Shown in pieces: positions 3,101 to 60,207 of a stretch of 64,000 nucleotides of DNA. Under the pieces are notes generated by a model. That model had not been told where the DNA came from, made no database searches, and saw nothing but the letters and a program-made list of their open reading frames with translations. Both the position numbers and the translations under genes were made by a program. Source of the DNA: Thermoanaerobaculia bacterium (GTDB lineage Bacteria; Acidobacteriota; Thermoanaerobaculia; UBA5066); contig CAVRAY010000001.1 of NCBI GenBank assembly GCA_963719225.1, positions 1,152,001 to 1,216,000 on the forward strand. Reading direction: 5' to 3'. Position 1 is the stretch's first letter; the number at the start of each line of letters is the position of its first letter.

Positions 3101-6009
<2,909 letters not shown>

Positions 6010-6964: not shown

Positions 6965-8674
6965 GTGACTTCCCGTTTCACTCGCTCGCGCTTCATGGCG
7001 CCCGTCGTCGTGCTGTCGATCGTCCTCGCGCTCCGCGCCGCCTCGCTCACCTCGCTCCTTGCCACCCCGCTCGCGTCGTGGCACCTCTGGATGGAGACGG
7101 ACGAGCACGCCTACGTCGAGTGGTCGGCCCGCCTCGCGGCGGGGAACTGGGCGGACGTGCCCGCGTACCGGGCGTACTTCAACTGGCAGAAGGAGTACGG
7201 CCCGCCGGAGACGTGGGAGCGCTGGTACCAGAAGAACGCGTACTATGCCGGGCCGCTCTATCCCTACGGCCTCGCTGTCCTCAGAAAGATCTTCGGCTCG
7301 CCTTTCCTGCCGGCGCGCGTTCTGCAACTTCTTCTGGCGTGTCTCGCATCCGCATTTCTTGCGGCGGCAATTCAAGGAGTCGGAGAAGATTTTCCTAGAA
7401 GGGAAGAAGGGAAGGGCGGGCGTGCGGTCTTGTGGTCGGCGATCGCCGGAGGCGTTCTCTACGGAGCGTACGGCCCCCTCGTCTTCCACGATTTCTTCCT
7501 TTACCGCGACGGCCCCGTCGCGCACCTCTCGACGCTCCTCGTGGCGTTGCCGCTGATAGCACGGGGAGGGAGCGAAGGGAAGATTTCTTCGAATGGTGAA
7601 GAGGGGAACGGCAAGCGGCGGGGATGGGCCGCGCTTTTTCTGGGCCTGCTGGGGGGCGCGGCAACCCTGATGAAGCAGACGGTGCTTCCCCTCGCGCTCT
7701 TCTCTCTCTATTCACTTTCAAAGAAATCCGAGTCCCCCGGCGGCCGCGGACGCGGCCGCTCCCTCCTCTTCGGACTCATCGGTCTCGCTCTTCCTCTCTC
7801 CGTCCTCTGCATCCGAAACGTCTCCGTCGGCGTCCCGCCGCTGACGTTCGACACGCGCCAGTCGATCGGCCTCGCGTGGGGAAACGGGTTCGGAGCCGAC
7901 GCGACGACGAATCCGGCGCCGGGAATGAAGGAGATCCTGGAGGAGGCCGGCGGGTCCACGTCGAAGACGGCGAAGCTCGTCCTCGCCGGCTACCGGGATC
8001 AGCCGCTCGAGCTGCCGAAGCTGTTCCTGAAGAAGACCGCGACTTTCTTCAACGTCTACGAGGTCCCCGACAACGCGAACTTCTACTTCTTCCGCGACCG
8101 GCTTCCGCTGCTGAAGGTACTGCCCGTCTTTCCCTGCCTCCTCGGCACCGGACTGGTCGGGCTGTTCGCCGCGCTCGCGCGCGGCGTGCTGAGAAAGGAA
8201 GAAGGGCTTCTGGCGGCCGTCGGCATCGTCGGGCCGCTCGCGGCGTGCTTGCTGGTTCAGACGACGTCCCGATATCGCGTGGGAGCGGCCGGGCCACTCG
8301 CGCTCGGAACGGGTCTCTTCTTCCTCTTGACCTTCGAAGAAATACGCGCGCGCCGGCAGCGAAACGCTTTCCTTCTGGCTGCGGCCGCGGGAGCACTGTC
8401 TCTCGTGACATTGCTTCCCTCGGTGATCCCGACGCGCAAGCACCGCTTCTCGGATACGCTCGTCTACGCGACGATCGTCGAGGCGCAGGAGGGGCCGGCG
8501 GCCGCGGCCGCCGAAGTGCGCCGGTATCTCGATGAAGGAGGCGATGACGAAAGCCGGGCAACCGGCATCGCGGCCCTACGCTACTGGGCGGAAAGCGGCG
8601 ACCGCTCGGGGTCGCTCGTCGAGCCCCCCGGCATCGCGCCGCCGGAGCGGCGCGTGCGGAAGAAAGAGAATTAG
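6965..8674 (+). CDS. GT-C fold membrane glycosyltransferase (ArnT/PMT-like, GT39/83 type)
   Basis: TM helix followed by a DE motif (TDEHAYVEW), PLYPY, many TM segments, C-terminal RYR. Confidence 0.7.
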   Translation: MTSRFTRSRFMAPVVVLSIVLALRAASLTSLLATPLASWHLWMETDEHAYVEWSARLAAGNWADVPAYRAYFNWQKEYGPPETWERWYQKNAYYAGPLYPYGLAVLRKIFGSPFLPARVLQLLLACLASAFLAAAIQGVGEDFPRREEGKGGRAVLWSAIAGGVLYGAYGPLVFHDFFLYRDGPVAHLSTLLVALPLIARGGSEGKISSNGEEGNGKRRGWAALFLGLLGGAATLMKQTVLPLALFSLYSLSKKSESPGGRGRGRSLLFGLIGLALPLSVLCIRNVSVGVPPLTFDTRQSIGLAWGNGFGADATTNPAPGMKEILEEAGGSTSKTAKLVLAGYRDQPLELPKLFLKKTATFFNVYEVPDNANFYFFRDRLPLLKVLPVFPCLLGTGLVGLFAALARGVLRKEEGLLAAVGIVGPLAACLLVQTTSRYRVGAAGPLALGTGLFFLLTFEEIRARRQRNAFLLAAAAGALSLVTLLPSVIPTRKHRFSDTLVYATIVEAQEGPAAAAAEVRRYLDEGGDDESRATGIAALRYWAESGDRSGSLVEPPGIAPPERRVRKKEN

Positions 8675-26318: not shown

Positions 26319-27548
26319 TTACCCGGCGGCGCGCGCGCGGGGAAACCGCAGAACGAGGAGGACCGCCGCGGCGACTCCGGCGATCGCCGCTCCCGCCAGG
26401 AACGCCGTTTTCGAGCCGGCGTGCTCCCAGATGAGGCCGAAGCCGACGCTCGCGGGCAGGGCGGCGAAGCCCATGAGGCCGTTCATCCAGCCGAATGCCC
26501 GCCCGCGCGACGCGGCGGGCACGAGGTCCGCGACGAGCGCGCGCTCCGTGCCTTCCGAAAGCGCGTAGTAGATCGAGTACACCCCGACGAGCCCGACGAG
26601 AGGCCACGGCGCGGACACGAACGCGAACCCGACGTAGCAGAGCGCGTAGAGCGTCCACGCGACGAGGAGCAGCTTCCGGCGTCCGAAGCGGTCCGAAAGG
26701 CCGCCGCCCCACATCGACAGCGCGGCCCTCACGGCGTTCGAGAACGCCCAGAGGACCGGCAGCCACGCGGCGGCGATTCCGATTTCCTTCGCCTTGAGGA
26801 GGAGGAACGTGTCGGACGACGCGGAAAGCGTGAAGAACGCGATCAGCCACGCCGCGCGCCAGAAGATCGGAGGAAGAACGGCGGCAGCGGCATCGCTCGA
26901 GGCGCCCTCGGGGCTCCCTGCCCTGTTCACCTTCAAAGAAATCTTCTCTTCTTCTTTTCTTTCCCTAACCCCGAATGCCAGGACCAGCAGCGATAGCCCG
27001 GCCGGAATGGCAGCGAGGAGGAAGACCATCTTGAAAGACAGTCCCATGAGGCCCATCAGTCCCGCCGCGAGGAGCGGGCCGAGGACGGCTCCCGCGTTGT
27101 CGAAGGCGCGGTGGAGGCCGTAGGCCGCGCCGCGCCGCTCTCCCGAGGCGACGGCCGCGATCATCGTGTCGCGGGGCGCCGTGCGAACGCCCTTGCCGAT
27201 GCGGTCGACGAAGCGGATGAAGACGACCACCGGCCACGTCGGCGCGAGGCCGATCAGGGGCTTGGAGAGGGAAGAGAGGGCATAGCCGATGAAGACGAGC
27301 GGCTTCTTCGCCTTCGCGCGGTCCGTCAGCCGGCCCGAGAGGATCTTCGCGAACGACGCCGCCGTCTCCGCGACGCCTTCGATCCATCCGAGGGCCATCG
27401 CGGGCACGCCGGTCAGCGTCGCGACGAACGCCGGCAGGAGCGGAACGATCATCTCGGAGGAGGCGTCGGTCAGGAACGAGACCCATCCGAGCCGCACGAC
27501 GACCGGGGGGAGACGTGCACCGGCGGGCGGAGCAGAATCGCTCCGCAT
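26319..27548 (-). CDS. MFS transporter
   Basis: SFLTDASSEM, GRLTDR, DRIGKGVRTAPRD, LSDRFGRR; about 12 TM helices. Confidence 0.92.
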   Translation of the reverse strand: MRSDSAPPAGARLPPVVVRLGWVSFLTDASSEMIVPLLPAFVATLTGVPAMALGWIEGVAETAASFAKILSGRLTDRAKAKKPLVFIGYALSSLSKPLIGLAPTWPVVVFIRFVDRIGKGVRTAPRDTMIAAVASGERRGAAYGLHRAFDNAGAVLGPLLAAGLMGLMGLSFKMVFLLAAIPAGLSLLVLAFGVRERKEEEKISLKVNRAGSPEGASSDAAAAVLPPIFWRAAWLIAFFTLSASSDTFLLLKAKEIGIAAAWLPVLWAFSNAVRAALSMWGGGLSDRFGRRKLLLVAWTLYALCYVGFAFVSAPWPLVGLVGVYSIYYALSEGTERALVADLVPAASRGRAFGWMNGLMGFAALPASVGFGLIWEHAGSKTAFLAGAAIAGVAAAVLLVLRFPRARAAG

Positions 27549-32082: not shown

Positions 32083-34443
32083 GTGCAGCTCCCGGTTCAT
32101 TCCCCGCCGCCCGAGGGCGAGATCGATCCCGTCTGCGGGATGACGGTGGATCCCGCGCGCGCCGCGGCGAAGGTCGAGCACGGCGGCAAGACCTGGTACT
32201 TCTGCTCGAAGGGCTGCGCGGAAAGATTCCGGAAAGAGCCAGAGAGATCTTCTTCACCCCCTTCACTTTCTAAGAAATCTCCCGGTTCTCTCTGGACCTG
32301 CCCGATGCATCCCGAGATCGTCAGGGAAAAGCCCGGAGCCTGCCCGATCTGCGGAATGGCTCTGGAGCCGTTGATGCCGACCGCCGCCGGCGGGGAGGAG
32401 GAGAACCCGGAGCTTCGGGACATGTCGCGACGGTTCTGGGTGAGCCTCGGACTGACGATCCCGCTCTTTCTCTTCGAGATGGGCTCGATGGTGTCGCCCA
32501 CGCTGCGGGACGCGCTGCCGTCGCGCCTGAACCTGCTCGTCCAGCTTGCTCTCGCGACACCCGTCGTCCTCTGGGGCGGGTGGCCGTTCTTCGAGAGAGG
32601 CTGGGCCTCTCTTCGCACGCGAAACCTCAACATGTTCACCCTCATCGCCCTGGGAACGGGCGCGGCATACCTGTACAGCCTTGCCAGGACGGCACAAACC
32701 CTCTTCACCTTTCAAAGAAACTTTGCAGACCATGACATGAGCCACGCCGCGACCGGCGTTGGCGCGCTCCACGATGTCTATTTCGAAGCCGCGGCCGGCA
32801 TCACGACCCTCGTCCTGCTCGGGCAGGTGCTCGAGCTGAGAGCGCGTGCGCGAACCTCGGGGGCGATCCGGGCGCTGCTGGGCCTCGCGCCGAAGACGGC
32901 GCGCGTCGTCCGCCCCGACGGCCGCGAAGAAGACGTGCCGCTCGAAAACGTGGCCGTCGGAGACCGGCTGCGCGTGAGGCCGGGCGAAAAGGTGCCCGTG
33001 GACGGGCTCGTGCTCGAGGGCGCGAGCGCGGTGGACGAGTCGATGATCACGGGCGAGCCGGTGCCGGTGGAGAAGACGAGGGGGAGCACCGTGACGGGCG
33101 GCACGCTCAACAGCGTCGGCGGCATCGTGATGAAGGCCGAGCGCGTGGGCCGGGACACGCTCCTCGCGCAGATCGTGAGACTGGTCGGCGAGGCGCAACG
33201 GAGCCGCGCGCCCATCCAGCGGCTCGCGGACGCGGTCGCCACCTGGTTCGTGCCCGCCGTCGTCCTCGTCTCCGTCCTGACGTTCGCCGCCTGGGCCGTG
33301 TTCGGCCCGCAGCCGCGTTTCGCGCACGCGCTCGTGAACGCCGTCGCCGTCCTCATCATCGCCTGCCCGTGCGCGCTCGGGCTCGCGACGCCGATGTCGA
33401 TCATGGTCGGAACCGGGCGCGGCGCGCAGGCCGGCATTCTCGTGAAGAACGCCGAAGCGCTCGAAAAGCTCGAGAAGGTGAACACGCTCGTCGTGGACAA
33501 GACGGGCACGCTGACGGAAGGGAAGCCGAGAGTGGAGAAGATTCGCGCCTTCGGCGCGTTCGACGAAAAGGAATTGTTGCGCATGGCCGCCTCGCTGGAG
33601 CGCGCGAGCGAACACCCCCTCGCGGCCGCGGTCACGGCCGCCGCCGAGGCAGCCGGTCTTACTCTTTCACCTTCGAAGGAATTCTCTTCGATCCCCGGGA
33701 AGGGCATTGCCGGAAAGGTGGACGGCCGGCCGGTCCTGCTGGGGTCTCTTCCCCTATTCGAAGAAGATTCTCTTTCTTCTTCCTTTCCCAGCGACCTCCT
33801 CGCCGAAGCAGACGCGGAGCGCGCGCAGGGTCACACGGTCCTCTTCGTGGCCGTGGACGGCAAGCCGGCGGGGTTCCTCTCGGCCGCCGATCCGATCAAG
33901 GGATCCGCGGCCGCCGCCATCGCCGAGATGCATCGCCTGGGAGTCCGCGTGGTGATGCTGACGGGCGACGCGAAGGCCACGGCCGAGAGCGTCGGCCGGG
34001 CGCTCGGAATCGACGAAGTCGTCGCGGGTGTGCTGCCGACGGCGAAGGCCGAAGCGGTGGCGCGCCTCAAGGGCGAGGGCAGGATCGTCGCGATGGCGGG
34101 CGACGGCGTGAACGACGCGCCGGCGCTCGCCGCTTCGGACGTGGGCATCGCGATGGGAACGGGGACGGACGTCGCGATCGAGAGCGCGGACGTGACGCTC
34201 CTCAAAGGCGACCTCTCCGGCCTCGTCAAGGCGCGGCGACTCTCGGAGGCGACGATGAGGAACATCCGGCAGAACCTCGTCTTCGCGTTCGTGTACAACG
34301 TGATCGGCATCCCGATCGCGGCGGGATTGCTCTACCCGTTCTTCGGGCTTCTCCTGTCCCCCGTCATCGCGAGCGCCGCGATGACGTTGAGCTCGGTCTC
34401 GGTGATCACGAACGCGCTCCGTCTCCGGCGCGTCGCGCTCTGA
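32083..34443 (+). CDS. copA: Cu(I)/Ag(I) P1B-type ATPase with N-terminal YHS and heavy-metal-binding domains
   Basis: DPVCGM..YFCS..C, CPMHPE..CPICGM, TGE, CPC, DKTGT, HP, GDGVND, YN, MxxSS. Confidence 0.93.
32268..32276. repeat. Dispersed motif TTCTAAGAA (inside copA)
   Basis: Exact copy followed by ATCT; pyrimidine-rich flanks. Confidence 0.75.
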
Positions 34444-39108: not shown

Positions 39109-40001
39109 CCCTCGGCCTCGCTGAACAGGACGAACGCGTCCTCGAGGCTGGGCTCTACGCGCCGGATGTCCTCTGCCGGGACGAGACCCGCGAGCGCCTC
39201 GCGCAATTCACCTTCTAAGAAATCCCCCGTCTTCCCTTTATCTTCTCTTCCCCTCACGTGCAGCCTCGTCCCGAAGAGCGAGACGTCGTCGACCTCCTGC
39301 ACTCCCTCGAGGCGCTTCTTGACCTCGAGCCGCTTCGACGAGCGGATCTCGACGAGCGGCCGCGGATACGAGGCGAGGATCTCTTCGCGCGTGCCGAGGG
39401 CGGAAAGCCGTCCGTGATCCAGGAACGCGAGATGCGTGGCGTACTCCGCCTCGTCCATGTAGGGCGTCGAAACGACGATCGTCAGGCCTTCGTGGTGCAG
39501 CCGGTTCAGGAGCAGCCAGAACTCGCGGCGCGACACCGGGTCGACGCCGGTCGTGGGCTCGTCGAGGAGAAGGAGAGGCGGCTGCGTCATGAGCGCCGAG
39601 ACGAGCGAGAGCTTCTGCCTCATGCCTCCCGAAAGCGCTCCCGCGAGACGCTTCCCGAACCGGTCGAGGCCGACGCGCTGCAGGAGGTCCTTCGCGCGCT
39701 TCGCGGCGACGTCGTCGGGGATCTCGTAGAGCCGCGCCCTGAGGGAGAGGTTCTCGTCGATCGAGAGGTCCTCGTAAAGGCTGAAGCGCTGCGGCACGAA
39801 GCCGAACGCGACGTTTTCCGCGATGCGGACGGTGCCCGCGGTCGGCTTGAGAAGGCCGGCGACGATGCGGAACAACGTCGACTTGCCGGCGCCGTCGGGC
39901 CCGATGAGCGCGAAGAGCTCGCCCTTGTCGATCTCGAGGTCGATTCCCCTGAGGGCCTCGACCTTTTCGAACTTCCGGGCGACGCCCCGGATCTCGATCA
40001 C
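39105..40001 (-). CDS. ABC transporter ATP-binding protein
   Basis: GTG start overlaps the HlyD stop; GPDGAGKST, LSGGMRQK, LDEPTTGVDP, STPYMDEAE. Confidence 0.93.
   Translation of the reverse strand: MIEIRGVARKFEKVEALRGIDLEIDKGELFALIGPDGAGKSTLFRIVAGLLKPTAGTVRIAENVAFGFVPQRFSLYEDLSIDENLSLRARLYEIPDDVAAKRAKDLLQRVGLDRFGKRLAGALSGGMRQKLSLVSALMTQPPLLLLDEPTTGVDPVSRREFWLLLNRLHHEGLTIVVSTPYMDEAEYATHLAFLDHGRLSALGTREEILASYPRPLVEIRSSKRLEVKKRLEGVQEVDDVSLFGTRLHVRGREDKGKTGDFLEGELREALAGLVPAEDIRRVEPSLEDAFVLFSEAEG
39213..39221. repeat. Dispersed motif TTCTAAGAA (inside the ABC ATPase)
   Basis: Exact copy followed by ATCC and a long pyrimidine tract. Confidence 0.75.
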
Positions 40002-40993
40002 GGGCCGACCTTGACGCTCACTTCCGCGGGCTGCCCCGGGACGAGCGGCACGTTCCACCCCGCGTCGAGGTCCACCTTCGCGGCGTAGACCTGGTTCACG
40101 CGCTCCTCGCGCGTCTCGACCGGCTTCGGCGTGAACTCCGCGTCGGGGGAGATCTCCGTGACGTGCGCCGGGAAGGACTTGCCGGGGAACGAATCCACGG
40201 TGACGGTCGCGGGGAGCGATGTCCTCACCACGCCGAGCTTGGTCTCGGGGATGTAGGTCCGCACGTAGAGACGTCCCGTGAACGCCATCGTCAGCGCGGG
40301 CTGGGACGGCGAGAGCAGGAGGCCCGGCTCGGCCATGCGGTGGAGGACGACGCCGTCCGCGGGTGCGCGGATTTCCGCCTCTCCGGCGGTCGTCTCGGAC
40401 TGCTTGAGGACCGTGCGCGCCCGGTCCACGTCGCGCCGCGCCTGTTCCTTCTGCCACGAGCGCGTGCCTTCGCGGAGGAGGCCGAGTTTTTCTTCGCTCA
40501 TCTTGAGATTGGCCTCCGCGCGATCGAGATTCGCGCGCGCAACGTCCACGTCTCGAGGAGATCCCACTTTCTTAGAAAGTAATATCTGCTGGCGCTCGAG
40601 CTCCGGCTTCGCGAGATCCAGAGCGGCGCGACGGTCCGCGACTTCCTGCTCCGCAGCCTTGATTTCCGACCCCCGGCTTCCCGCTTCCAGGTCCTGGTAC
40701 CGCGCCTGGCTGGATTCCAGGCCGCGGCGATCGCGCTCGACGGCGAGCGCCATCTCGCCGAGGTCGAGCTTCACGAGGAGGTCGCCGGCCTTCACGCGAT
40801 CCCCTTCCTTCACCTTGACCTCGACGACGCGCCCGGCGACCTTCGGCGCGAGGTCCACGGTGGGTGCTTCGAGACGCCCGCTCAGCTTGACGAAGTTCGG
40901 GTCCTGCTTCGGCCGGCATGCGGCAATGACGATTGCCGAGGCCGCGAGTCCGGCGATCGCGACGGCCGGGAAGAAACGAGACGTCCTGCGCAT
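39998..40993 (-). CDS. HlyD family periplasmic adaptor (YbhG-like)
   Basis: SGRLEA, EGDRVKAGD, IRAPADG, ISPDAEFTPK. Confidence 0.92.
   Translation of the reverse strand: MRRTSRFFPAVAIAGLAASAIVIAACRPKQDPNFVKLSGRLEAPTVDLAPKVAGRVVEVKVKEGDRVKAGDLLVKLDLGEMALAVERDRRGLESSQARYQDLEAGSRGSEIKAAEQEVADRRAALDLAKPELERQQILLSKKVGSPRDVDVARANLDRAEANLKMSEEKLGLLREGTRSWQKEQARRDVDRARTVLKQSETTAGEAEIRAPADGVVLHRMAEPGLLLSPSQPALTMAFTGRLYVRTYIPETKLGVVRTSLPATVTVDSFPGKSFPAHVTEISPDAEFTPKPVETREERVNQVYAAKVDLDAGWNVPLVPGQPAEVSVKVGP
40566..40580. repeat. Dispersed motif as a 15-bp palindrome ACTTTCT-T-AGAAAGT (inside hlyD)
   Basis: Perfect inverted arms around a central T. Confidence 0.75.
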
Positions 40994-41005: not shown

Positions 41006-44000
41006 CTACAGTTCCGCGGGCGCGGGCGCGAGGGTCTGGTCCGCGGCCGGCTGCGCGCCGGGCTGCTTGCGCAGCCGCCGGACCGCGCGGCCGATCGCCT
41101 GCTGCGCGTCGTCGAAGAGCGAGTAGGCGACGGGCGTCGCGAGGAGCGTGAGGAGGAGCGCGAGCGTCTGGCCGCCCACGATGACCGACCCGATCGCGCG
41201 GTTCGTGCCCGCGCCCGGCCCGGAGGAGACGAGAAGCGGCAGCATGCCGGCCACGAAGGCGAGAGTCGTCATGAGGATGGGGCGGAGGCGCTCGCGGCTC
41301 GCGAGGATGACCGCCGCGTCGCGCTCCATGCCGCGTTCGCGAAGCTGGTTCGCGAACTCGACCTGGAGAATCGAGTTCTTCTTCACGACTCCGAACAAAA
41401 CGAGGATGCCGAGCGACGTGAAGATGTTCAGCGACTGGCCGGCGATGAGAATCGAGAGGAGCGCGAACGGCACCGTGAGCGGAAGAGCGAGGAGGATCGT
41501 GATCGGATGGAGCCAGCTCTCGAACTGGGCCGCGAGGATGAGGTACATGAAGATGAACGACAGCGCGAACGCCAGGAGGAAGTTCTGCGCGGCACGGCCC
41601 TGCTCCTTCGAGCGGCCGATGAAGCGATACGTGAAGGAGGGGTCGAGGTTCATCGCCTTCGCCTCCTTCGCGAGGAGATCGATCGCGACCTGAGACGAGA
41701 AGCCCGGGTTCATGTTCGCGAGGATCGTGACCTGGCGCCGGCGGTTCAGGCGCTTGATCTCCGACGGGCCCGTGCCCGCGCGGAAGGACGTCACGTCCTC
41801 GAGCGGGACCGCACCGAGGCGGTTCGACGGCACGTTGAAGCGGCGGAGGCTCGCCTCGTCGGTGCGGTCGCCCGGCCGGGCGCGGAGGTACACGTCGTAC
41901 TGCTCGCCCCCGTCGTCGAAAGCGGAGACTTTCTCGCCGCCCACGAGGACGCGGAGGGTCTCGGAGACGTCCGCCACCGAGACGCCGAGGTCCGACGCTT
42001 TCGAGCGGGCGACGGTCACGCCGAGCTCGGGCTTGCCGAAGATGAGCGACGAGTCCACGTCCACGATGCCGGGGACCTGCGAGAGCTTCTTCATGAGCGT
42101 GTCGGAGACGGCCGCGAGCCGCGTGAGGTCCGGCCCGTTCACGACGAACATGATCTCGGCGTTCTTCTGCCCGCCCGAGAAGGCGTTCACGTACGACACG
42201 TCCGAGCGCAGCCTGGAGTCCTCGAAGTGCGGGAGGATCTGCTTGCGCACGCGGTCCATGACGGTCGTCTGCGCGTCCTTGCGCCTGTGGACGTCCACGA
42301 GCTTCACGTAGATGCTTCCGACGTTCGGGGTCTTCGCGTCGTCGGCGCCCACCGTCAGAAGCGTGTATTCGACGCCGGCGAGCGCCTTGACCTCCTTGGA
42401 GATGCGGTTCCCGATGAGGGCCGTCGCTTCGAGCGACGTTCCCTCCGGCGCGCGGAAGTTCACCTCGAACTGCGACTCGTCGTCGTAGGGCAGGAAATTC
42501 TTCGGGACGAACTTGAAGAGGACCGGTACGGCGAGAAGGGCGACGACGCACGCGAGGACGACCGCCCAGCGCCGCGCCATGGACCACGTGAGCATCGACG
42601 TGTACGCCCGGTCGATGTGCCGATAGAAGCCTCGCGACTTCGTTGAAGAGCTCTCCGACGACGCGCCGCCCTCGCCCAGGCTCTCTCTCCTTCTAAGCAA
42701 ATCTTCTTTCTTCTCTTCTTTTCTCTTCAACAACCTGGCCGACAACATGGGCGTCAGCGAGAAGGACACGAGGAGCGAGACGAGGATTGCGAAGGCCATC
42801 GTGAGGCCGAACGAGTTCATGAACCGCCCGACGATGCCGCCCATGAAGGCGACGGGAAGGAAGACGGCCACGAGCGAGAGCGTCGTCGCGAGGACGGCGA
42901 GGCCGATCTCCTTCGTCGCGTCGATCGCGGCCTGGAAAGGCATGACCTTCTTCTCCTCGATGAACCGGAAGATGTTCTCGAGAACGACGATGGCGTCGTC
43001 GATGACGATGCCGACGGCGAGCGTGAGCGCGAGGAGCGTCAGGACGTTGAGCGTGAAGCCCATCGCGTACATGAGGGCGTACGTGGAGATGATCGACGTC
43101 GGAATCGCGATCGCCGCGATGAGGGTCGACCGGAGGTTGCCGAGGAAGAGGAGCACGACGAGCGCCGCGAGGAAACCGCCGAGAACGAGGTGCTCCTGGA
43201 CGGTCGAGACGGCGGCCTTGATGAACTGCGACTGGTCGCGGACGATCTCGGTCGTGTAGCCGGCCGGGAGCTGCGGAGCGATCTCGGCGAGGCGGCCCTT
43301 GATCGCATCGATGACCTGGACCGTGTTCGTGCCCGACTGCTTGCGGACCGACAGGACGACCGTGGGAACTCCGTCCTTGCTCGCGGCGCGCTCGGCGTCC
43401 TCTTCGCTGTCCTCCACGGTCGCGACGTCGCCGATCCGCACCGGCAGCCCGCTCCGCTGCGTGATGAAGATCGCCTCGAACTCCTTCGCGTTCGCCACGC
43501 GTCCGTAGACGCGGACGGTCGCCTCGTTCGCGCCGCTCTTGAGCGTGCCGCCCGGGAGCTTCACGTTCTGCGTCTGGAGAGCGCGGCGGACGTCGACGGC
43601 GGAAAGGCCGTAGGCCTTGAGGCGCTCGGTGTCGAGGCGCACGTTGATGCGGCGCGACCGGCCGCCGAGGATCGTGACCTGCCCGACTCCGTTGACGGAC
43701 TCGAGCTGGCGGCGCAGGACCTTGTCGGCGAACTCGGTCGTCTCGCGGAGGGTCCGGTTTCCCGAGAGAGCCACGGAGAGGACCGGCGTGGCGTCGGGAT
43801 CGAGCTTCTCCACGATGGGCTGGTCGATGTCGCGCGGGAGCTCGGCGAGGACGCGGTTCACCTTGTCGCGCACTTCCTGAGCGGCGACGTCGACGTTCTT
43901 CTCGAGGATGAACGTGACGAAGACCTGCGAGATGCCCTCGGCGGAGACCGACTGGAGGTCGTCGATGCCCGCGATCGTGTTGATCGACTCCTCGATCTTG

Positions 44001-44197
44001 TCGGTGACCTCCGTTTCGACCTCCTCCGGAGCCGCTCCGGGAAGGCGGGTGATGACGGCGACCGTGGGGAAGTCGACGCGCGGATACCGGTCCACTCCGA
44101 GGCGCGTGTAGCCGACGCCTCCGACGACGACGAGCGCGATGATGATCACCGACGCGAAAACGGGCCGGCGAACGCAAAGACGGGCGAGTGCCTGCAC
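41006..44197 (-). CDS. RND efflux permease (AcrB/AcrD/AcrF family)
   Basis: RRPVFA, GIVIDDAIVVLENI, SLTPML, KNSIL, RLRPILMTT. Confidence 0.95.
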   Translation of the reverse strand: MQALARLCVRRPVFASVIIIALVVVGGVGYTRLGVDRYPRVDFPTVAVITRLPGAAPEEVETEVTDKIEESINTIAGIDDLQSVSAEGISQVFVTFILEKNVDVAAQEVRDKVNRVLAELPRDIDQPIVEKLDPDATPVLSVALSGNRTLRETTEFADKVLRRQLESVNGVGQVTILGGRSRRINVRLDTERLKAYGLSAVDVRRALQTQNVKLPGGTLKSGANEATVRVYGRVANAKEFEAIFITQRSGLPVRIGDVATVEDSEEDAERAASKDGVPTVVLSVRKQSGTNTVQVIDAIKGRLAEIAPQLPAGYTTEIVRDQSQFIKAAVSTVQEHLVLGGFLAALVVLLFLGNLRSTLIAAIAIPTSIISTYALMYAMGFTLNVLTLLALTLAVGIVIDDAIVVLENIFRFIEEKKVMPFQAAIDATKEIGLAVLATTLSLVAVFLPVAFMGGIVGRFMNSFGLTMAFAILVSLLVSFSLTPMLSARLLKRKEEKKEDLLRRRESLGEGGASSESSSTKSRGFYRHIDRAYTSMLTWSMARRWAVVLACVVALLAVPVLFKFVPKNFLPYDDESQFEVNFRAPEGTSLEATALIGNRISKEVKALAGVEYTLLTVGADDAKTPNVGSIYVKLVDVHRRKDAQTTVMDRVRKQILPHFEDSRLRSDVSYVNAFSGGQKNAEIMFVVNGPDLTRLAAVSDTLMKKLSQVPGIVDVDSSLIFGKPELGVTVARSKASDLGVSVADVSETLRVLVGGEKVSAFDDGGEQYDVYLRARPGDRTDEASLRRFNVPSNRLGAVPLEDVTSFRAGTGPSEIKRLNRRRQVTILANMNPGFSSQVAIDLLAKEAKAMNLDPSFTYRFIGRSKEQGRAAQNFLLAFALSFIFMYLILAAQFESWLHPITILLALPLTVPFALLSILIAGQSLNIFTSLGILVLFGVVKKNSILQVEFANQLRERGMERDAAVILASRERLRPILMTTLAFVAGMLPLLVSSGPGAGTNRAIGSVIVGGQTLALLLTLLATPVAYSLFDDAQQAIGRAVRRLRKQPGAQPAADQTLAPAPAEL

Positions 44198-47200: not shown

Positions 47201-47386
47201 GGCGGCCAGATCTCCCGCGAGCGCAGTTCATACGCCGTGCCATCGATGTGGACTTTCGTCAGCCCTGGAGGAAGTGTTTCTGAGAAGGGAGTTTAGAAGC
47301 GGGCGGGGGCGGCGCCGGAAGGTGCGGCGTGGCTCGATTCGATGCTGATTTATCGACACGTTGAACCCTCGCGTTCCCTCTTCCCC

Positions 47387-47395
47387 TTCTAAGAA
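47387..47395. repeat. Dispersed motif TTCTAAGAA (intergenic, upstream of the efflux operon)
   Basis: Exact copy; variant TTCTGAGAA at 47278. Confidence 0.75.
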
Positions 47396-50184: not shown

Positions 50185-51306
50185 ATGCGGATCGCAGTTG
50201 CGATGTCAGGGGGCGTGGACTCGTCGGTCGCGGCCCTCCTTCTCCGCCGCGAAGGCGCCGACGTGGTGGGTCTGTCGATGCACCTCTGGAATCACGACCG
50301 CGACGGGTCGGGGGCGAACACGGGCCGCTGCTGCACGCTCGACGACCTGTCCGTCGCGCGACGCGCGGCCGAGGCGATCGGCGTGCCCCACTTCGTCCTG
50401 AACCTCGAGCAGCGCTTCACGGAAGCGGTCGTGAAGCCGTTCGTGGAGAGCTATCTCGAGGGGAGGACGCCGATCCCGTGCACGGTCTGCAACACGGAGG
50501 TGAAATTCAAGACCCTCCTTCAGAAGGCCTCTGCCCTCGACTGCCAGGCCGTCGCCACGGGGCACTACGCGCGCATCGGAAGGGACGACGTCACGGGAGC
50601 CCCGCGCCTCCTGCGAGCGCGCGACCGCGCCCGCGACCAGTCCTACTTCCTCTACGACCTCACGGAAGAGCAGCTCTCACGCGCCCGCTTCCCGCTGGGA
50701 GAGCTGACGAAGCCCGAGGTGAGAGAAATCGCGCGAGAGGCGGGGCTGCCGAACTGGGACAAGCCCGATTCTCAGGAGGTCTGCTTCGTGCCGAACGGAA
50801 TGACGCCGGCGGACTTCATCCGGCTCGAGGCCGGACGTCTCGGCCTCGAGCTGCCGGCTTTCGCGGGCGCGAAGCGCGGGGAGATTTTCTTAGAAGGTGG
50901 AGAGAGAGTAGGAGCGCACGAAGGGACGATGGCCTATACCGTGGGCCAGAGAAAGGGGATCGGCGTCGCCGCGAAGGAGCCCCTGTACGTGATCGCAACC
51001 AACCCTGAAGAGAGCCGCGTCGTCGTAGGGCCGGCCCCCGCTCTCCTTTCTAAGAAAGTCTTCCTGGAGCGCGTGAGTGTGCGCTTGGCTGGAGGCGTGA
51101 GGTCGCCCGTTTCCGTGCTTGCCCGCATCCGCTCCCGCCATCCCGAGCAGGCCGCCTGCCTGACGCTCTCTGAGGGCGGTCGCGGCTCTCTCGACTTCGA
51201 GGAGCCCGTGTGCGCCGCGGCTCCCGGCCAGTCGGCGGTCTTCTACGACGTGGGCCGACCCGAGGTCGTCCTCGGCGGCGGCGTCATCTCTCGGCCCGCG
51301 GCCTGA
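50185..51306 (+). CDS. mnmA: tRNA 2-thiouridine(34) synthase
   Basis: AMSGGVDSS, TPIPCTVCN, ATGHY, DQSYFL, DSQEVCF, PGQSAVFY. Confidence 0.97.
   Translation: MRIAVAMSGGVDSSVAALLLRREGADVVGLSMHLWNHDRDGSGANTGRCCTLDDLSVARRAAEAIGVPHFVLNLEQRFTEAVVKPFVESYLEGRTPIPCTVCNTEVKFKTLLQKASALDCQAVATGHYARIGRDDVTGAPRLLRARDRARDQSYFLYDLTEEQLSRARFPLGELTKPEVREIAREAGLPNWDKPDSQEVCFVPNGMTPADFIRLEAGRLGLELPAFAGAKRGEIFLEGGERVGAHEGTMAYTVGQRKGIGVAAKEPLYVIATNPEESRVVVGPAPALLSKKVFLERVSVRLAGGVRSPVSVLARIRSRHPEQAACLTLSEGGRGSLDFEEPVCAAAPGQSAVFYDVGRPEVVLGGGVISRPAA
50887..51056. repeat. Inverted pair of dispersed motifs inside mnmA
   Basis: TTCTTAGAA at 50887 (purine flanks) and TTCTAAGAA at 51048 (pyrimidine flanks). Confidence 0.75.
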
Positions 51307-51336: not shown

Positions 51337-51370
51337 TTGACTTTCGCCTTACTTACGCCTAACTTGCGCC
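51337..51370 (+). promoter_or_regulatory. sigma70 promoter overlapped by an 11-bp-period direct repeat (candidate SOS/LexA-type operator)
   Basis: TTGACT-17 nt-TAACTT; repeat CTTTCGCCTTA/CTTACGCCTAA/CTTGCGCC. Confidence 0.55.
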
Positions 51371-51384
51371 GGCGGGGTGATTCG

Positions 51385-52299
51385 ATGGTTGCCATCAAGA
51401 GGGGCGTGAAAATCGAGGGGCAAGACGCCGTCAACATCAGGGACCTCATCGTTCCCGGCGTCGGCAATCGACGCATCTTCCGGATCCTCCTCACGAATGC
51501 CTGCCGCTTCTCGTGCGACTACTGCCCCATGCGCGCCGAGCGCGACCTGCCCCGGCATGCCCTCGCACCCGCCAGCCTCGCGCGCCTCTTCATGACCGCG
51601 TTTCGCCGCGGCTGGTGCGACGGTCTCTTCGTGACGAGCGGCATCCCGAAGGACCCGATCTTCGCGATGGAGCAGATGCTCCAGCTCGTCGAGATCCTCC
51701 GCTTCACTCACGGGTACCGGGGTTATCTCCATGCGAAGGCGCTGGCGGGCGCCGAGCCGGGCCAGATCGAACGTCTCGTGCGTCTCGTGGATCGCGTCTC
51801 CTACAACCTCGAGGCGCCGTGCCAGCGCGCGCTCGACGAGCATGCTGCCGGCAAGAGCGGGGCAAGCGGGCTTTCGCTGCTCGAGACGGCTCGGGACGCG
51901 GCGCTCGCCGTGCGCGAAGCGCGGCGCGCGTCCGCGCGCCATGCACCGGCGCCTCTTCCGGCTTCTCTTCCCGCCGGGCCGACGCCTGGCCGTCGAGGCC
52001 CCGCACTGGCGCTCGTGAACTCCAGCCGGTTTCCCGTCGAGCTCAGCACGGCCACTCGCGAAGAGCTTCGAAGGGTGCCCGGCGTCGGTCCGCGCACGGT
52101 CGAACGCATCCTGGAAACCCGGTCGCGAAGGGCGCTGAGAGATCCCGCCGATCTCAAGCGGCTCGGCGTTCAGCTCGGTCGAGCCGGCGGTTTTGTCACC
52201 TTGCGCGGACGCCTCGTCGGCACTCGCTCCATCCAGACGCTGCTCTTTGCAAATTGCTCTACTGGAGAGACTTACAAATACAGCGCGGGCACGTTTTGA
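51385..52299 (+). CDS. Putative DNA modification/repair radical SAM-HhH protein (TIGR03916-like), shortened
   Basis: LLTNACRFSCDYC, GLFVTSG, GYLHAK, DRVSYNLE, FPVE...LRRVPGVG (HhH). Confidence 0.8.
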   Translation: MVAIKRGVKIEGQDAVNIRDLIVPGVGNRRIFRILLTNACRFSCDYCPMRAERDLPRHALAPASLARLFMTAFRRGWCDGLFVTSGIPKDPIFAMEQMLQLVEILRFTHGYRGYLHAKALAGAEPGQIERLVRLVDRVSYNLEAPCQRALDEHAAGKSGASGLSLLETARDAALAVREARRASARHAPAPLPASLPAGPTPGRRGPALALVNSSRFPVELSTATREELRRVPGVGPRTVERILETRSRRALRDPADLKRLGVQLGRAGGFVTLRGRLVGTRSIQTLLFANCSTGETYKYSAGTF

Positions 52300-52357
52300 C
52301 GAAACGCCGCTCCTCTCCGGAGTCGAAATTGATCAAGGCGTATGCTAGAATTGCGGA

Positions 52358-53149
52358 TTGCGTATGGTCAAGGCCACACCATCTGCCACCCTGATTCTCA
52401 AGGACATTCGAGCCGCGCTGGATTCCCGTCTGGACGGGAAAGAGAGAGGGGATAAAGCGAAAAGCATCGTCCCCAAGGGGCCGCTCAAGGCTCTCGGCCT
52501 CCGCGCGTCCCTCGTGAGATCGATCGCGCGGGACGTCGAGTCGAAGACGCGGCCCGCGATCGATTACACGGCCGCGCTCGCCGTCGTCGATTCGGCCATG
52601 ACGCGGAAGGTGCGCGAGGAAATCCTCGTGGCGCTCGAGATTCTCGAGCATCGCCAGAAGGAGTTCGCTCCGGGCCTTTTCGCGAAAGTCGAGAAGTGGA
52701 GCGCCGTGGCCGACGACCTCGAGGTCGCCGAAGCTCTCGGGATGCGCGTGGCGGCTCCGGCTCTCAGACTCGAGCCGGCGAAGCTGAACGTGGTCAAGAA
52801 GTGGGCGAAGCTCAAGAGCGTCGGGAAGCGGCATCTCGCCGTCCTCGCCGCGACGGGACTCGTGGTGGATGGACACCGCGAAGCGACGGCCGTGCTGAAC
52901 CTGGCGGAGACTCTCCTCGACGAGCAGAATCCGCTTATGGTCGGCGCCGTCGCGCGGCTTCTGCGGGAGACGACGCGCGTCGACGCGAAAGCCGTCCAGG
53001 ATTTCCTCTTCCGGCGCTCGATCGACGGCAACCCGGACATCCTCCGCGCCGGCTCCGAAAACCTCGACGCCGCGCGCCGGGCGGCGCTCATCGCGAAGCT
53101 CGAGGCTCAGGCCGCGCTCACGGCTCCTCTCGCCGCCGCCGAGAGATAA
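52358..53149 (+). CDS. DNA alkylation repair (AlkD-like HEAT repeat) protein, divergent
   Basis: LGLRASLVRSIA, REE, KKWAK, LLDEQ..V..AV..LLRE layout; extended -10 TGcTAGAAT upstream. Confidence 0.65.
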   Translation: MRMVKATPSATLILKDIRAALDSRLDGKERGDKAKSIVPKGPLKALGLRASLVRSIARDVESKTRPAIDYTAALAVVDSAMTRKVREEILVALEILEHRQKEFAPGLFAKVEKWSAVADDLEVAEALGMRVAAPALRLEPAKLNVVKKWAKLKSVGKRHLAVLAATGLVVDGHREATAVLNLAETLLDEQNPLMVGAVARLLRETTRVDAKAVQDFLFRRSIDGNPDILRAGSENLDAARRAALIAKLEAQAALTAPLAAAER

Positions 53150-59607: not shown

Positions 59608-60129
59608 CCGCGCCCGCCTGACGGCCTCCCGCGAGAGCTGCCGGGCCTCGGAGAGGAGCCGCGCCACCGTCTTTCCGGTTCCGGGCACCACGCGCCGCGG
59701 CGCGACGTCCGCGAGCGGGACGAGGACGAAGAGACGGCTCGTCATCCGCGGGTGCGGAACGGTCAGGCGCCGCGTCGCGATCCGCTCGTTTCCATAGAGG
59801 AGGAGGTCGAGGTCGAGGGGGCGAGGCGCGTTTCGAGGCCCGCCCGGCTTTCGGCCGGCAGAGATTTCGGATTTTCTTAGATGGGTGAGGAGGGCCTGCG
59901 CAGAGAGCGAGGTCGTTCCGACGATGACGGCATTGAGGTAGTCGGGCTGATCGGATGGGCCTCCGACCGGCGAGGTGCCATAGAGAAGAGATATTTTAGG
60001 ATTTCTTAGAAAGGGAGAGAGGCTTCGGAGCGCGTTGCGGAAGGCGCGACGGGTGTTGCCGACGTTGCCGCCCACGCCGATGGCCACGAAGACGGGCCTG
60101 GGGCGCGCCAGGGCTCTTTTCACCTTCAT
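59599..60129 (-). CDS. folK: 2-amino-4-hydroxy-6-hydroxymethyldihydropteridine diphosphokinase
   Basis: IGVGGNVG, QPDYLNAV, PRPLDLDLL, LTVPHPR, FVLVPL. Confidence 0.93.
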   Translation of the reverse strand: MKVKRALARPRPVFVAIGVGGNVGNTRRAFRNALRSLSPFLRNPKISLLYGTSPVGGPSDQPDYLNAVIVGTTSLSAQALLTHLRKSEISAGRKPGGPRNAPRPLDLDLLLYGNERIATRRLTVPHPRMTSRLFVLVPLADVAPRRVVPGTGKTVARLLSEARQLSREAVRRARSF

Positions 60130-60207
60130 CCACGTCCCCGCCTCGCGGCTCGGCCGCGGCACGTACCTACGATCCTCGCCTGCGGCTCGGCTCTTCGGTT
60201 CTAAGAA
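59874..60207. repeat. Cluster of three dispersed motifs in and upstream of folK
   Basis: TTCTTAGAT at 59874, TTCTTAGAA at 60003, TTCTAAGAA at 60199. Confidence 0.75.

Follow-up and report, generated by a model that had tools for sequence, protein, structure and literature searches.

A Thermoanaerobaculia chromosome carries several hundred copies of a directional DNA element, here termed an arm, and about two thirds of these arms stand back to back in pairs around short stretches of native DNA. The stretch from which we approached the element (the window) comprises 64,000 nucleotides, C1:1,152,001–1,216,000 of a genome (G000) of 4.75 Mb and 68% GC that is 97% complete with 6% contamination. 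An earlier note on this DNA had described strand-polarised purine and pyrimidine patches around a short motif, among others in the gene of a resistance-nodulation-division (RND) efflux pump, and had overlooked the pairing, which is the main feature of the element. Synonymous positions within the arms are conserved, the arms are indifferent to the coding strand, they are denser towards the replication terminus and they have altered the proteins in which they lie. The element is real and is either selected or driven. The explanation that we prefer, to which we would give slightly less than an even chance, is that the arms are sites for a putative DNA-bridging protein that would fold the duplex back on itself and contribute to chromosome organisation, chiefly in the terminus half.

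Arms were searched for with an iterated asymmetric matrix of 29 columns (27 bits), a score of at least 18 defining an arm. There are 815 arms genome-wide, and the 749 matches on contig C1 compare with 3 in a shuffled control; the sequence TTCTAAGAA occurs in 273 copies, with 3.7 expected from an order-3 Markov background. Each arm consists of an inner part of about 12 bp of C and T, often ending in TTCACC, followed by the TTCNAAGAA core, AATCTT-like bases and a G-poor tail that fades by about +40 from the core. The central base of the core varies (T 0.49, G 0.32, A 0.11, C 0.07), and the motif as a whole is asymmetric rather than a short perfect palindrome of the HIP1 type. The oriented profile is similar in 241 intergenic and 520 coding arms. 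Its skew extends even outside the matrix window, the pyrimidine share being 0.716 at +13 to +22 and 0.606 at +23 to +32 of the core centre, where random places give 0.50. Of the 194 tracts of at least 20 nt that are purely purine or purely pyrimidine, 129 are found no more than 60 bp from an arm, in a zone amounting to 2% of the genome; in all 129 it is the TTCNAAG strand that bears the pyrimidines. The polarised flanks and the directional element longer than a 9-mer that the earlier note had proposed are both borne out by this profile and by the matrix. Its patch of 30–80 bp is extended as supposed, with a different size and symmetry: some 12–16 bp precede the core and 30–40 bp follow it. CpG depletion does not stand as a feature of its own, since the observed/expected ratio is 1.29 in the tail and 1.35 in the genome and only the inner arm is low (0.74); CpG is scarce near arms because G is lost.

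A pair was defined as a minus core followed by a plus core, neighbours less than 400 bp apart. By this definition 530 of the 815 arms form 265 back-to-back pairs, in which the inner arms face each other and the tails point outward. There are 365 neighbours closer than 400 bp (54 expected), 265 of them back to back versus 91 expected with random strands, and close spacing is found for 265 of 291 minus-then-plus neighbours versus 13 of 291 plus-then-minus neighbours. The same geometry recurs in a second genome of the genus (g1), G177, with 86 of 89 minus-plus neighbours close versus 6 of 87 plus-minus, and in G158, a member of the sister genus (g3), with 18 back-to-back neighbours versus 2 others. 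Distances between core centres set in at about 65–68 bp, peak at 70–95 bp and tail off beyond 200 bp; a 30-bp or helical periodicity of the spacing was tried and none was found. More than half of the pairs (157 of 265) lie within one gene, and 560 of the 815 arms lie in called genes (4071 genes, called with our own hexamer model, so that starts are approximate). The spacers are 70% GC, and 189 of 251 are singletons. Where an arm lacks a partner, a weak opposite arm is often found at the expected place: 106 of 285 such arms have one 55–220 bp upstream, versus 4 downstream and 7 at random places. The largest group of related spacers belongs to fifteen Ser/Thr kinase paralogues (C1 at about 2.29–2.32 Mb and elsewhere), which have in common a 93-bp pair that is matched to two conserved peptides of the kinases and recurs in G158; pairs have thus spread by gene duplication too.

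Arms in genes are divided evenly between the strands (274 sense, 286 antisense; unpaired coding arms, 92 and 105), and they show no enrichment in the gaps between divergent or between convergent genes, so that the element is neither a promoter nor a terminator. Since the arms of a pair are inverted, they could pair with each other through their common consensus; in-frame insertions contain 46 of 118 sites and, in some cases, an entire pair. Both features could be expected of a nucleic-acid structure or a mobile repeat, whether the arms pair in single-stranded DNA or RNA (a cruciform, or an element of the REPIN or Rickettsia palindromic element type) or the tracts form a triplex. We regard this as very improbable, and its hairpin version is already largely refuted. 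The two arms of a pair show no covariation over the 236 pairs examined (z 1.35, or 2.3 with the core alone), the energy of the arm duplex (−17.0 kcal/mol versus −16.7 ± 0.24 kcal/mol with shuffled partners) was taken as equal, and spacers in 110 sampled pairs fold no better than shuffled ones (mean z 0.07 intergenic, −0.08 coding). Because the arms do not covary and the spacers do not fold, the element is not a hairpin, a REPIN or a MITE. The spacers are also mostly unrelated, one pair in mnmA, described below, came about without an indel, one third of the arms are single, and no Y1 (RAYT) transposase (PF01797) was found in this one 97%-complete genome.

Comparison with G177 at four-fold degenerate positions gave an agreement of 0.83 in the core (n=75), 0.74 in the inner arm and 0.51 in the tail, with a background of 0.57 (n=8239). 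Of 202 alignable sites, 157 are kept in place between the two genomes, which are 72% identical in nucleotide sequence. Four-fold sites in the tail are T-rich (0.32 versus 0.05). Conservation at synonymous sites thus stops short of the tail: the core is being maintained, and the tail reflects a soft preference or a mutation bias. The earlier note had offered a local mutational footprint as one cause of the patches, and in a fully neutral form a bound protein or a repair bias would turn nearby DNA to C and T on one strand, with the result tolerated in loops. The T-rich tail that is not conserved by position, the frequent expansion of tails and the widely differing load among members of the sister genus agree with such a process, and the tail may indeed owe its composition to it. 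As the main cause it is not supported: synonymous conservation in the core and inner arm exceeds the background, the 157 sites are retained, 30 of 46 sites persist between two genera, no single substitution type dominates at sites, and the pairing itself is left unexplained. We consider the neutral footprint the least probable of the explanations discussed here.

The proteins have paid for the element. In 66 orthologue pairs with G052, a genome of the sister genus used as outgroup, amino-acid identity at site codons is 0.25–0.45 versus 0.69 elsewhere, and insertions of at least two residues are present at 46 of 118 aligned sites versus 27 of 884 background windows. G052 turned out to be no clean outgroup (12 sites, weakly paired), and these contrasts may therefore include reversion in G052. 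Serine is enriched 4-fold at sense arms, lysine and glutamate 2.9-fold at antisense arms. In mnmA both arms of a pair are present in this genome and in 12 of 13 other orthologues from the genus and in 0 of 15 from outside it (one partial locus dropped). They arose by codon substitution, with no indel and with native coding sequence between them, and the orthologues retain the same DNA motif with differing codons and residues. In conservation, the loop of the RND pump ranks at the 1st percentile in a set of 15 motif-free relatives, and the two MnmA windows at the 5th and 10th percentile in a set of 9; judged from these alignments, the host segments were already variable. The idea that the patches remodel proteins in tolerant places is supported by these results, and the changes are not confined to loops and insertions, MnmA having been altered by substitution; orthologue alignment, which was to tell insertions from substitutions, returned both, the former in the RND loop and the latter in MnmA. 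The six peptides that the earlier note assigned to such patches are all present at their positions. One of them, the 13-residue CopA peptide at 32242, is in frame upstream of the called start at 32305 and so may not be translated. Here a signal at the DNA level has clearly driven change in proteins, and it would mislead tests for protein adaptation in this lineage.

The arm at 42679–42727 of the window, around which the earlier note was written, illustrates such an insertion. Its short inner part of C and T occupies positions 42679–42690 (plus strand; matrix columns −12 to −1), the C/T run from 42681 leading into the core, an TTCTAAGCA variant, at 42691–42699 (plus strand; matrix score 31.8), followed at 42700–42727 by a 28-nt outer tail of A, C and T that is G-free in accordance with the oriented profile. 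The minus strand, read from 42727 downward, encodes KRKEEKKEDLLRRRES, the tail accounting for KRKEEKKED. The host gene (41006–44197, minus strand) codes for an RND efflux pump of the AcrB/MdtB family (Pfam ACR_tran), whose best-matching relatives come from Thermoanaerobaculia or Acidobacteriota genomes. Alignment to PDB 9lyq places the patch as a 16-residue insertion relative to MdtB directly after a membrane helix (LTPMLSAR), in what we take to be the cytoplasmic loop after TM6. The arm has no partner: the best upstream candidate on the opposite strand scores only 6.1, and no partner scoring higher was found in 23 close RND orthologues. The loop of these orthologues measures 17–40 residues with the arm and 11–20 residues without it (L013, L014, L024 and L026, which were unmeasurable, are left out of the count, and six distant loci were kept apart), and the tails often expand. 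In one relative, a contig from sequencing runs has 13 letters in place of a 73-bp stretch of the loop; in such contigs from relatives a usable inversion signal was not seen.

The element is restricted to a narrow clade. The strict pair pattern is present in 29 of 29 genomes of the genus, with none for the reversed control, and exact TTCTAAGAAA occurs in 63–197 copies in 11 of 11. In 140 other genomes there was no comparable excess of it over the control; two of these genomes came highest, with 14 and 8 copies. A class-wide range was rejected on these counts and on the aspS loci, where pairs are found in 3 of 3 loci from the genus (three pairs each) and in 0 of 26 others. In the sister genus, 6 of 8 genomes have 8–30 exact matches, mostly with a central G; in the other eight genera, 26 genomes have 0–1. 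Within 400 kb of G158, 30 of 46 arms have a counterpart in this genome no more than 60 bp from the mapped position, and many sites therefore predate the split of the two genera. Metagenomes yielded 13 paired matches, the best protein identity to this genome being 73–96% in 12 and 49% in one. Matches in viral DNA (2 for the paired pattern, 34 for an 18-mer) were put down to chance, the DNA being 31–59% GC and without the pair architecture seen in this lineage. No description of the element was found in the full-text literature searched, outside which most subscription papers lie, and among the matches listed for the 9-mer in papers no title concerns a bacterial genomic repeat. The element fits no tested family and is new against that literature.

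We fixed the origin and terminus by GC skew, a single parS (C2:333,827) and dif (C1:2,037,576), assuming that the usual patterns of these three marks hold here. Up to 1 Mb from dif there are 23–28 arms per 100 kb, and farther out than 1.2 Mb there are 6–13. Counted as loci on C1, the density is 14.2 per 100 kb within and 6.1 beyond 1.1 Mb of dif (2.3-fold; p 8e-15), and the bias is present in genes with and without an outgroup match. In G177 at least 84 of 119 exact matches are within 1.1 Mb of its dif (p 1e-4), and G173 has the same bias among the matches listed. Altogether there are about 450 loci, about one per 7 kb in the terminus half, and arms flank dif itself, at distances of up to about 210 bp, at 10 of 12 loci of the genus and in G158. 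A different function would suit this layout, namely that a pair loads two outward-facing motors on its spacer, or blocks the passage of a translocase or SMC-type extruder coming from either side. The number and spacing of loci and the arms around dif agree with this, a fixed orientation and a minimum spacer without phasing would fit two independently bound oriented complexes, and a protein that acts as an SMC roadblock at AT-rich motifs is described for archaea (PMC11840125). The SMC protein here is an ordinary orthologue. Unpaired arms also have no polarity towards the terminus (153 versus 132), unlike KOPS, Chi and Ter sites, which show polarity; a KOPS-like polarity of the purine run of arms was likewise sought and rejected (282 versus 287). 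We judge a loading or boundary function to be improbable. A multitude of replication origins is argued against by the single GC-skew switch on the chromosome.

A second complete parA–parB operon, separate from the parAB genes at the origin, stands beside dif (C1:2037865-2039524; L289:4865-6524). The dif-linked ParB is almost universal in the order (45 of 46 genomes), with dif in 29 of 30 of those loci, and the operon may serve as a partition or clamp system tied to the terminus; nothing on such an operon was found in the literature searched. Upstream of it, next to an arm pair, C1:2040050-2040330 contains a DnaA-box-like 9-mer and an AT-rich stretch.

The main rival to a chromosome-organising role is a drive of the kind that maintains DNA uptake sequences, in which an uptake or packaging machinery would favour paired fragments, for instance as a doubled-back loop entering a pore, and alleles would spread without benefit to the cell. 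Like uptake sequences, the arms occur in hundreds of copies on both strands, in genes and in variable segments, and have changed the proteome; kinking at uptake sites has also been proposed (PMC2817400). The restriction to one clade, the presence of ComEC and the lower density of sites (2.0 per 100 kb) in the 100 genes whose codon use is most ribosomal-like are further points in its favour. It does not predict the terminus bias, which is repeated in two genomes, and ComEC, the only competence gene searched for, is present in all of 5 genomes, whether or not they have the motif. No site lies in any of the 8 maintenance genes found by motif (gyrase, a second type II topoisomerase, recA, ftsK, topA and similar; the maintenance-gene set counts nine with two Xer-like genes), and pairing at 70–200 bp does not belong to the uptake-sequence model in the available text (PMC2817400). 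On balance such a drive seems unlikely.

Under the bridging explanation, a putative protein would read each arm on double-stranded DNA. Reading by a protein fits the data and base pairing between arms does not, because the arms drift independently around a 27-bit consensus. The protein would hold two arms side by side while the spacer DNA folds into a short loop, and a duplex U-turn in the spacer would bring the inverted arms into parallel, with the long tails running outward along the stem. Such a turn would account for the single favoured orientation, the sharp lower limit of about 65–70 bp and the outward tails. The short loops would probably contribute to the organisation of the chromosome, above all in the terminus half; lone arms, such as that at 42691, would be weaker or incomplete sites, and the changed peptides, rich in Ser, Pro and Phe in sense and in Lys, Glu and Arg in antisense, would be a tolerated cost. 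Protein-bridged duplex hairpins are described in E. coli, at kilobase scale (PMC12460168).

Several observations weigh against this explanation. The spacing of 232 pairs, counted without the 93-bp kinase paralogues, lacks 10.5-bp helical phasing, and rigid DNA loops below 100 bp usually show such phasing. About one third of the arms (285 of 815), including the one at 42691, are unpaired at the main threshold, and 12 of 23 close RND orthologues carry that arm, kept or regained without a partner. The terminus bias is about 2-fold and not exclusive, and the origin-side densities rest on C1 and G177, because C2 looks partly chimeric. In the sister genus G052 has one exact match and G159 none, so that the system is not indispensable there. 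The amino-acid cost in core enzymes is hard to square with hundreds of architectural sites and easier to understand under drive. Finally, the reader itself was found in no screen, the synteny search for gained genes covering 1.2 Mb of G052, 0.8 Mb of G177 and 0.4 Mb of G158. Histones (PF00808) were absent from 5 of 5 genomes and MatP (PF06303) from 13 of 13. Among candidate readers, SMC (69% identical to that of G052) and both ParB genes were rejected since motif-free relatives have them too, and HU/IHF since 4–5 copies are present with and without the motif. A reader may have been missed, as the synteny screens were partial and G052 is no clean outgroup.

Other candidates were also set aside: the dif-linked ParAB, the most tempting, which is order-wide and has no genus-diagnostic helix-turn-helix residue among 29 aligned sequences; a Myb-like/TPR protein present in 45 of 49 genomes of the family; a 70-residue protein present in 5 of 5 genomes; and an 86-residue basic protein present in 0 of 5. 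A lead, and only that, is a 107-residue orphan (C1:1350154-1350477; L351:254-577), which is 88–100% identical in 27 of 27 genomes of the genus, occurs in 0 of 7 genomes from the sister genus, which bears the motif, and in 2 of 2 from a genus that lacks it, and has no sequence match in Pfam or PDB. Its predicted structure combines a long basic N-terminal helix with a beta-sheet domain (pLDDT 80). A distinct set of about 30 copies of a 22-bp palindrome, mostly near gene starts, was observed in G052 (C1:950-64200; L098-L101). It is limited to this 64-kb stretch among the DNA examined and looks like the operator array of a mobile island.

In its fullest form the bridging explanation amounts to a young, lineage-specific chromosome code, which we put forward more tentatively still: a protein would read hundreds of oriented pairs and pin short duplex loops through the terminus half, under selection or drive strong enough to rewrite hundreds of core proteins, and the sister genus would be seen in the act of acquiring the system or shedding it. 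Few model bacteria have so far provided examples of sequence-specific chromosome organisers, and the reason for highly iterated motifs such as HIP1 is still under debate. The element adds a testable geometry of fixed orientation, minimum spacer, independent arms and a dif-centred bias, together with a natural gradient from heavy in one genus through light or nearly absent in its sister to not found beyond among the genomes searched.

The window contains 21 arms, 10 of them in 5 pairs. A 91-bp pair (cores 474–482, minus, and 565–573, plus) lies at the 3' end of a cytochrome c gene in an alternative complex III cluster, and a 132-bp pair at 7585–7725 has additional arms near it at 7392–7400 (minus) and 8333–8341 (plus). 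The 109-bp pair at 47278–47395 is in the spacer upstream of the efflux operon, where many close relatives have arms at the corresponding position; the mnmA pair (161 bp) is at 50887–51056, and a 196-bp pair at 60003–60207 marks the 5' end of folK (HPPK), with a second minus arm at 59874–59882. Unpaired plus-strand cores are found at 3109–3117 (score 25.8), at 26932–26940 in the middle of a major facilitator superfamily transporter gene (ERKEEEKISLK; 33.2) and at 39213–39221 in the gene of an ATP-binding cassette ATPase (GREDKGKTGDFLEGE; 32.1). Four plus-strand cores, at 32268, 32711, 33672 and 33757 (32268–33765; scores 26.8–34.3), lie at or in copA, a heavy-metal P-type ATPase gene by NCBIfam. 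A near-symmetric core with weak flanks at 40569–40577 is below the threshold of 18 (16.1 and 12.5) and is present at the matching place in many relatives. Downstream of mnmA (51337–53149), a gene for a radical SAM protein with helix-hairpin-helix motifs adjoins one for a DNA alkylation repair protein. Outside the window, C2:1-220000 and C2:600000-800000 are homologous in inverted order, with about 77% protein identity and a duplicated smpB, and C2 is likely a partly chimeric assembly.

Among known systems, parS and Noc-binding sites (NBS) have a ParB-family reader, and no cognate ParB tracks the motif here, the dif-linked ParB being order-wide. HIP1 of cyanobacteria resembles the element in being over-represented in and between genes and conserved at the DNA level, with no peptide or RNA role and a proposed nucleoid function; it is an 8-bp palindrome tied to methyltransferases, whereas the arms follow a degenerate 27-bit asymmetric motif, form oriented pairs and change amino acids (PMC5861425). 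REPINs likewise are inverted doublets over-represented around a spacer, but as described they are extragenic, fold into hairpins and move as units with RAYT, whereas 560 of 815 arms are genic, their spacers are native and unfolded and no Y1 transposase is present (PMC3116915). Rickettsia palindromic elements and MITEs also cause in-frame changes in unrelated housekeeping proteins, the former as inserted units of about 150 bp with a conserved peptide; the interior of our pairs is not common to them, and arms arise by substitution alone (PMC10969869). Hairpins bridged by H-NS in E. coli (CHINs) are like the proposed geometry, a folded-back duplex being bridged along AT-rich arms, but they measure about 2 kb, lie on silenced foreign genes and, in the text available, are not set by one oriented motif pair in core genes (PMC12460168). 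The matS/MatP system of E. coli has sequence-specific sites biased to a dif-centred region, with looping between sites reported; matS is 13 bp long, in 23 copies and confined to the terminus region, as opposed to the roughly 800 directional arms with a 2.3-fold bias, short-range pairs and no MatP in 13 genomes (PMC4756834). The uptake sequences, that is the uptake signal sequences (USS) of Pasteurellaceae and the DNA uptake sequences (DUS) of Neisseriaceae, are likewise asymmetric, clade-specific motifs flanked by AT-rich DNA; they occur by the hundred in genes and on both strands, and have reshaped the proteome by mutation in place (PMC2817400). The arms differ from uptake sequences, as these are described there, in that two thirds of them stand in oriented pairs around 35–200 bp of native DNA, their density rises near dif and their flanks are strand-polarised (PMC2817400).

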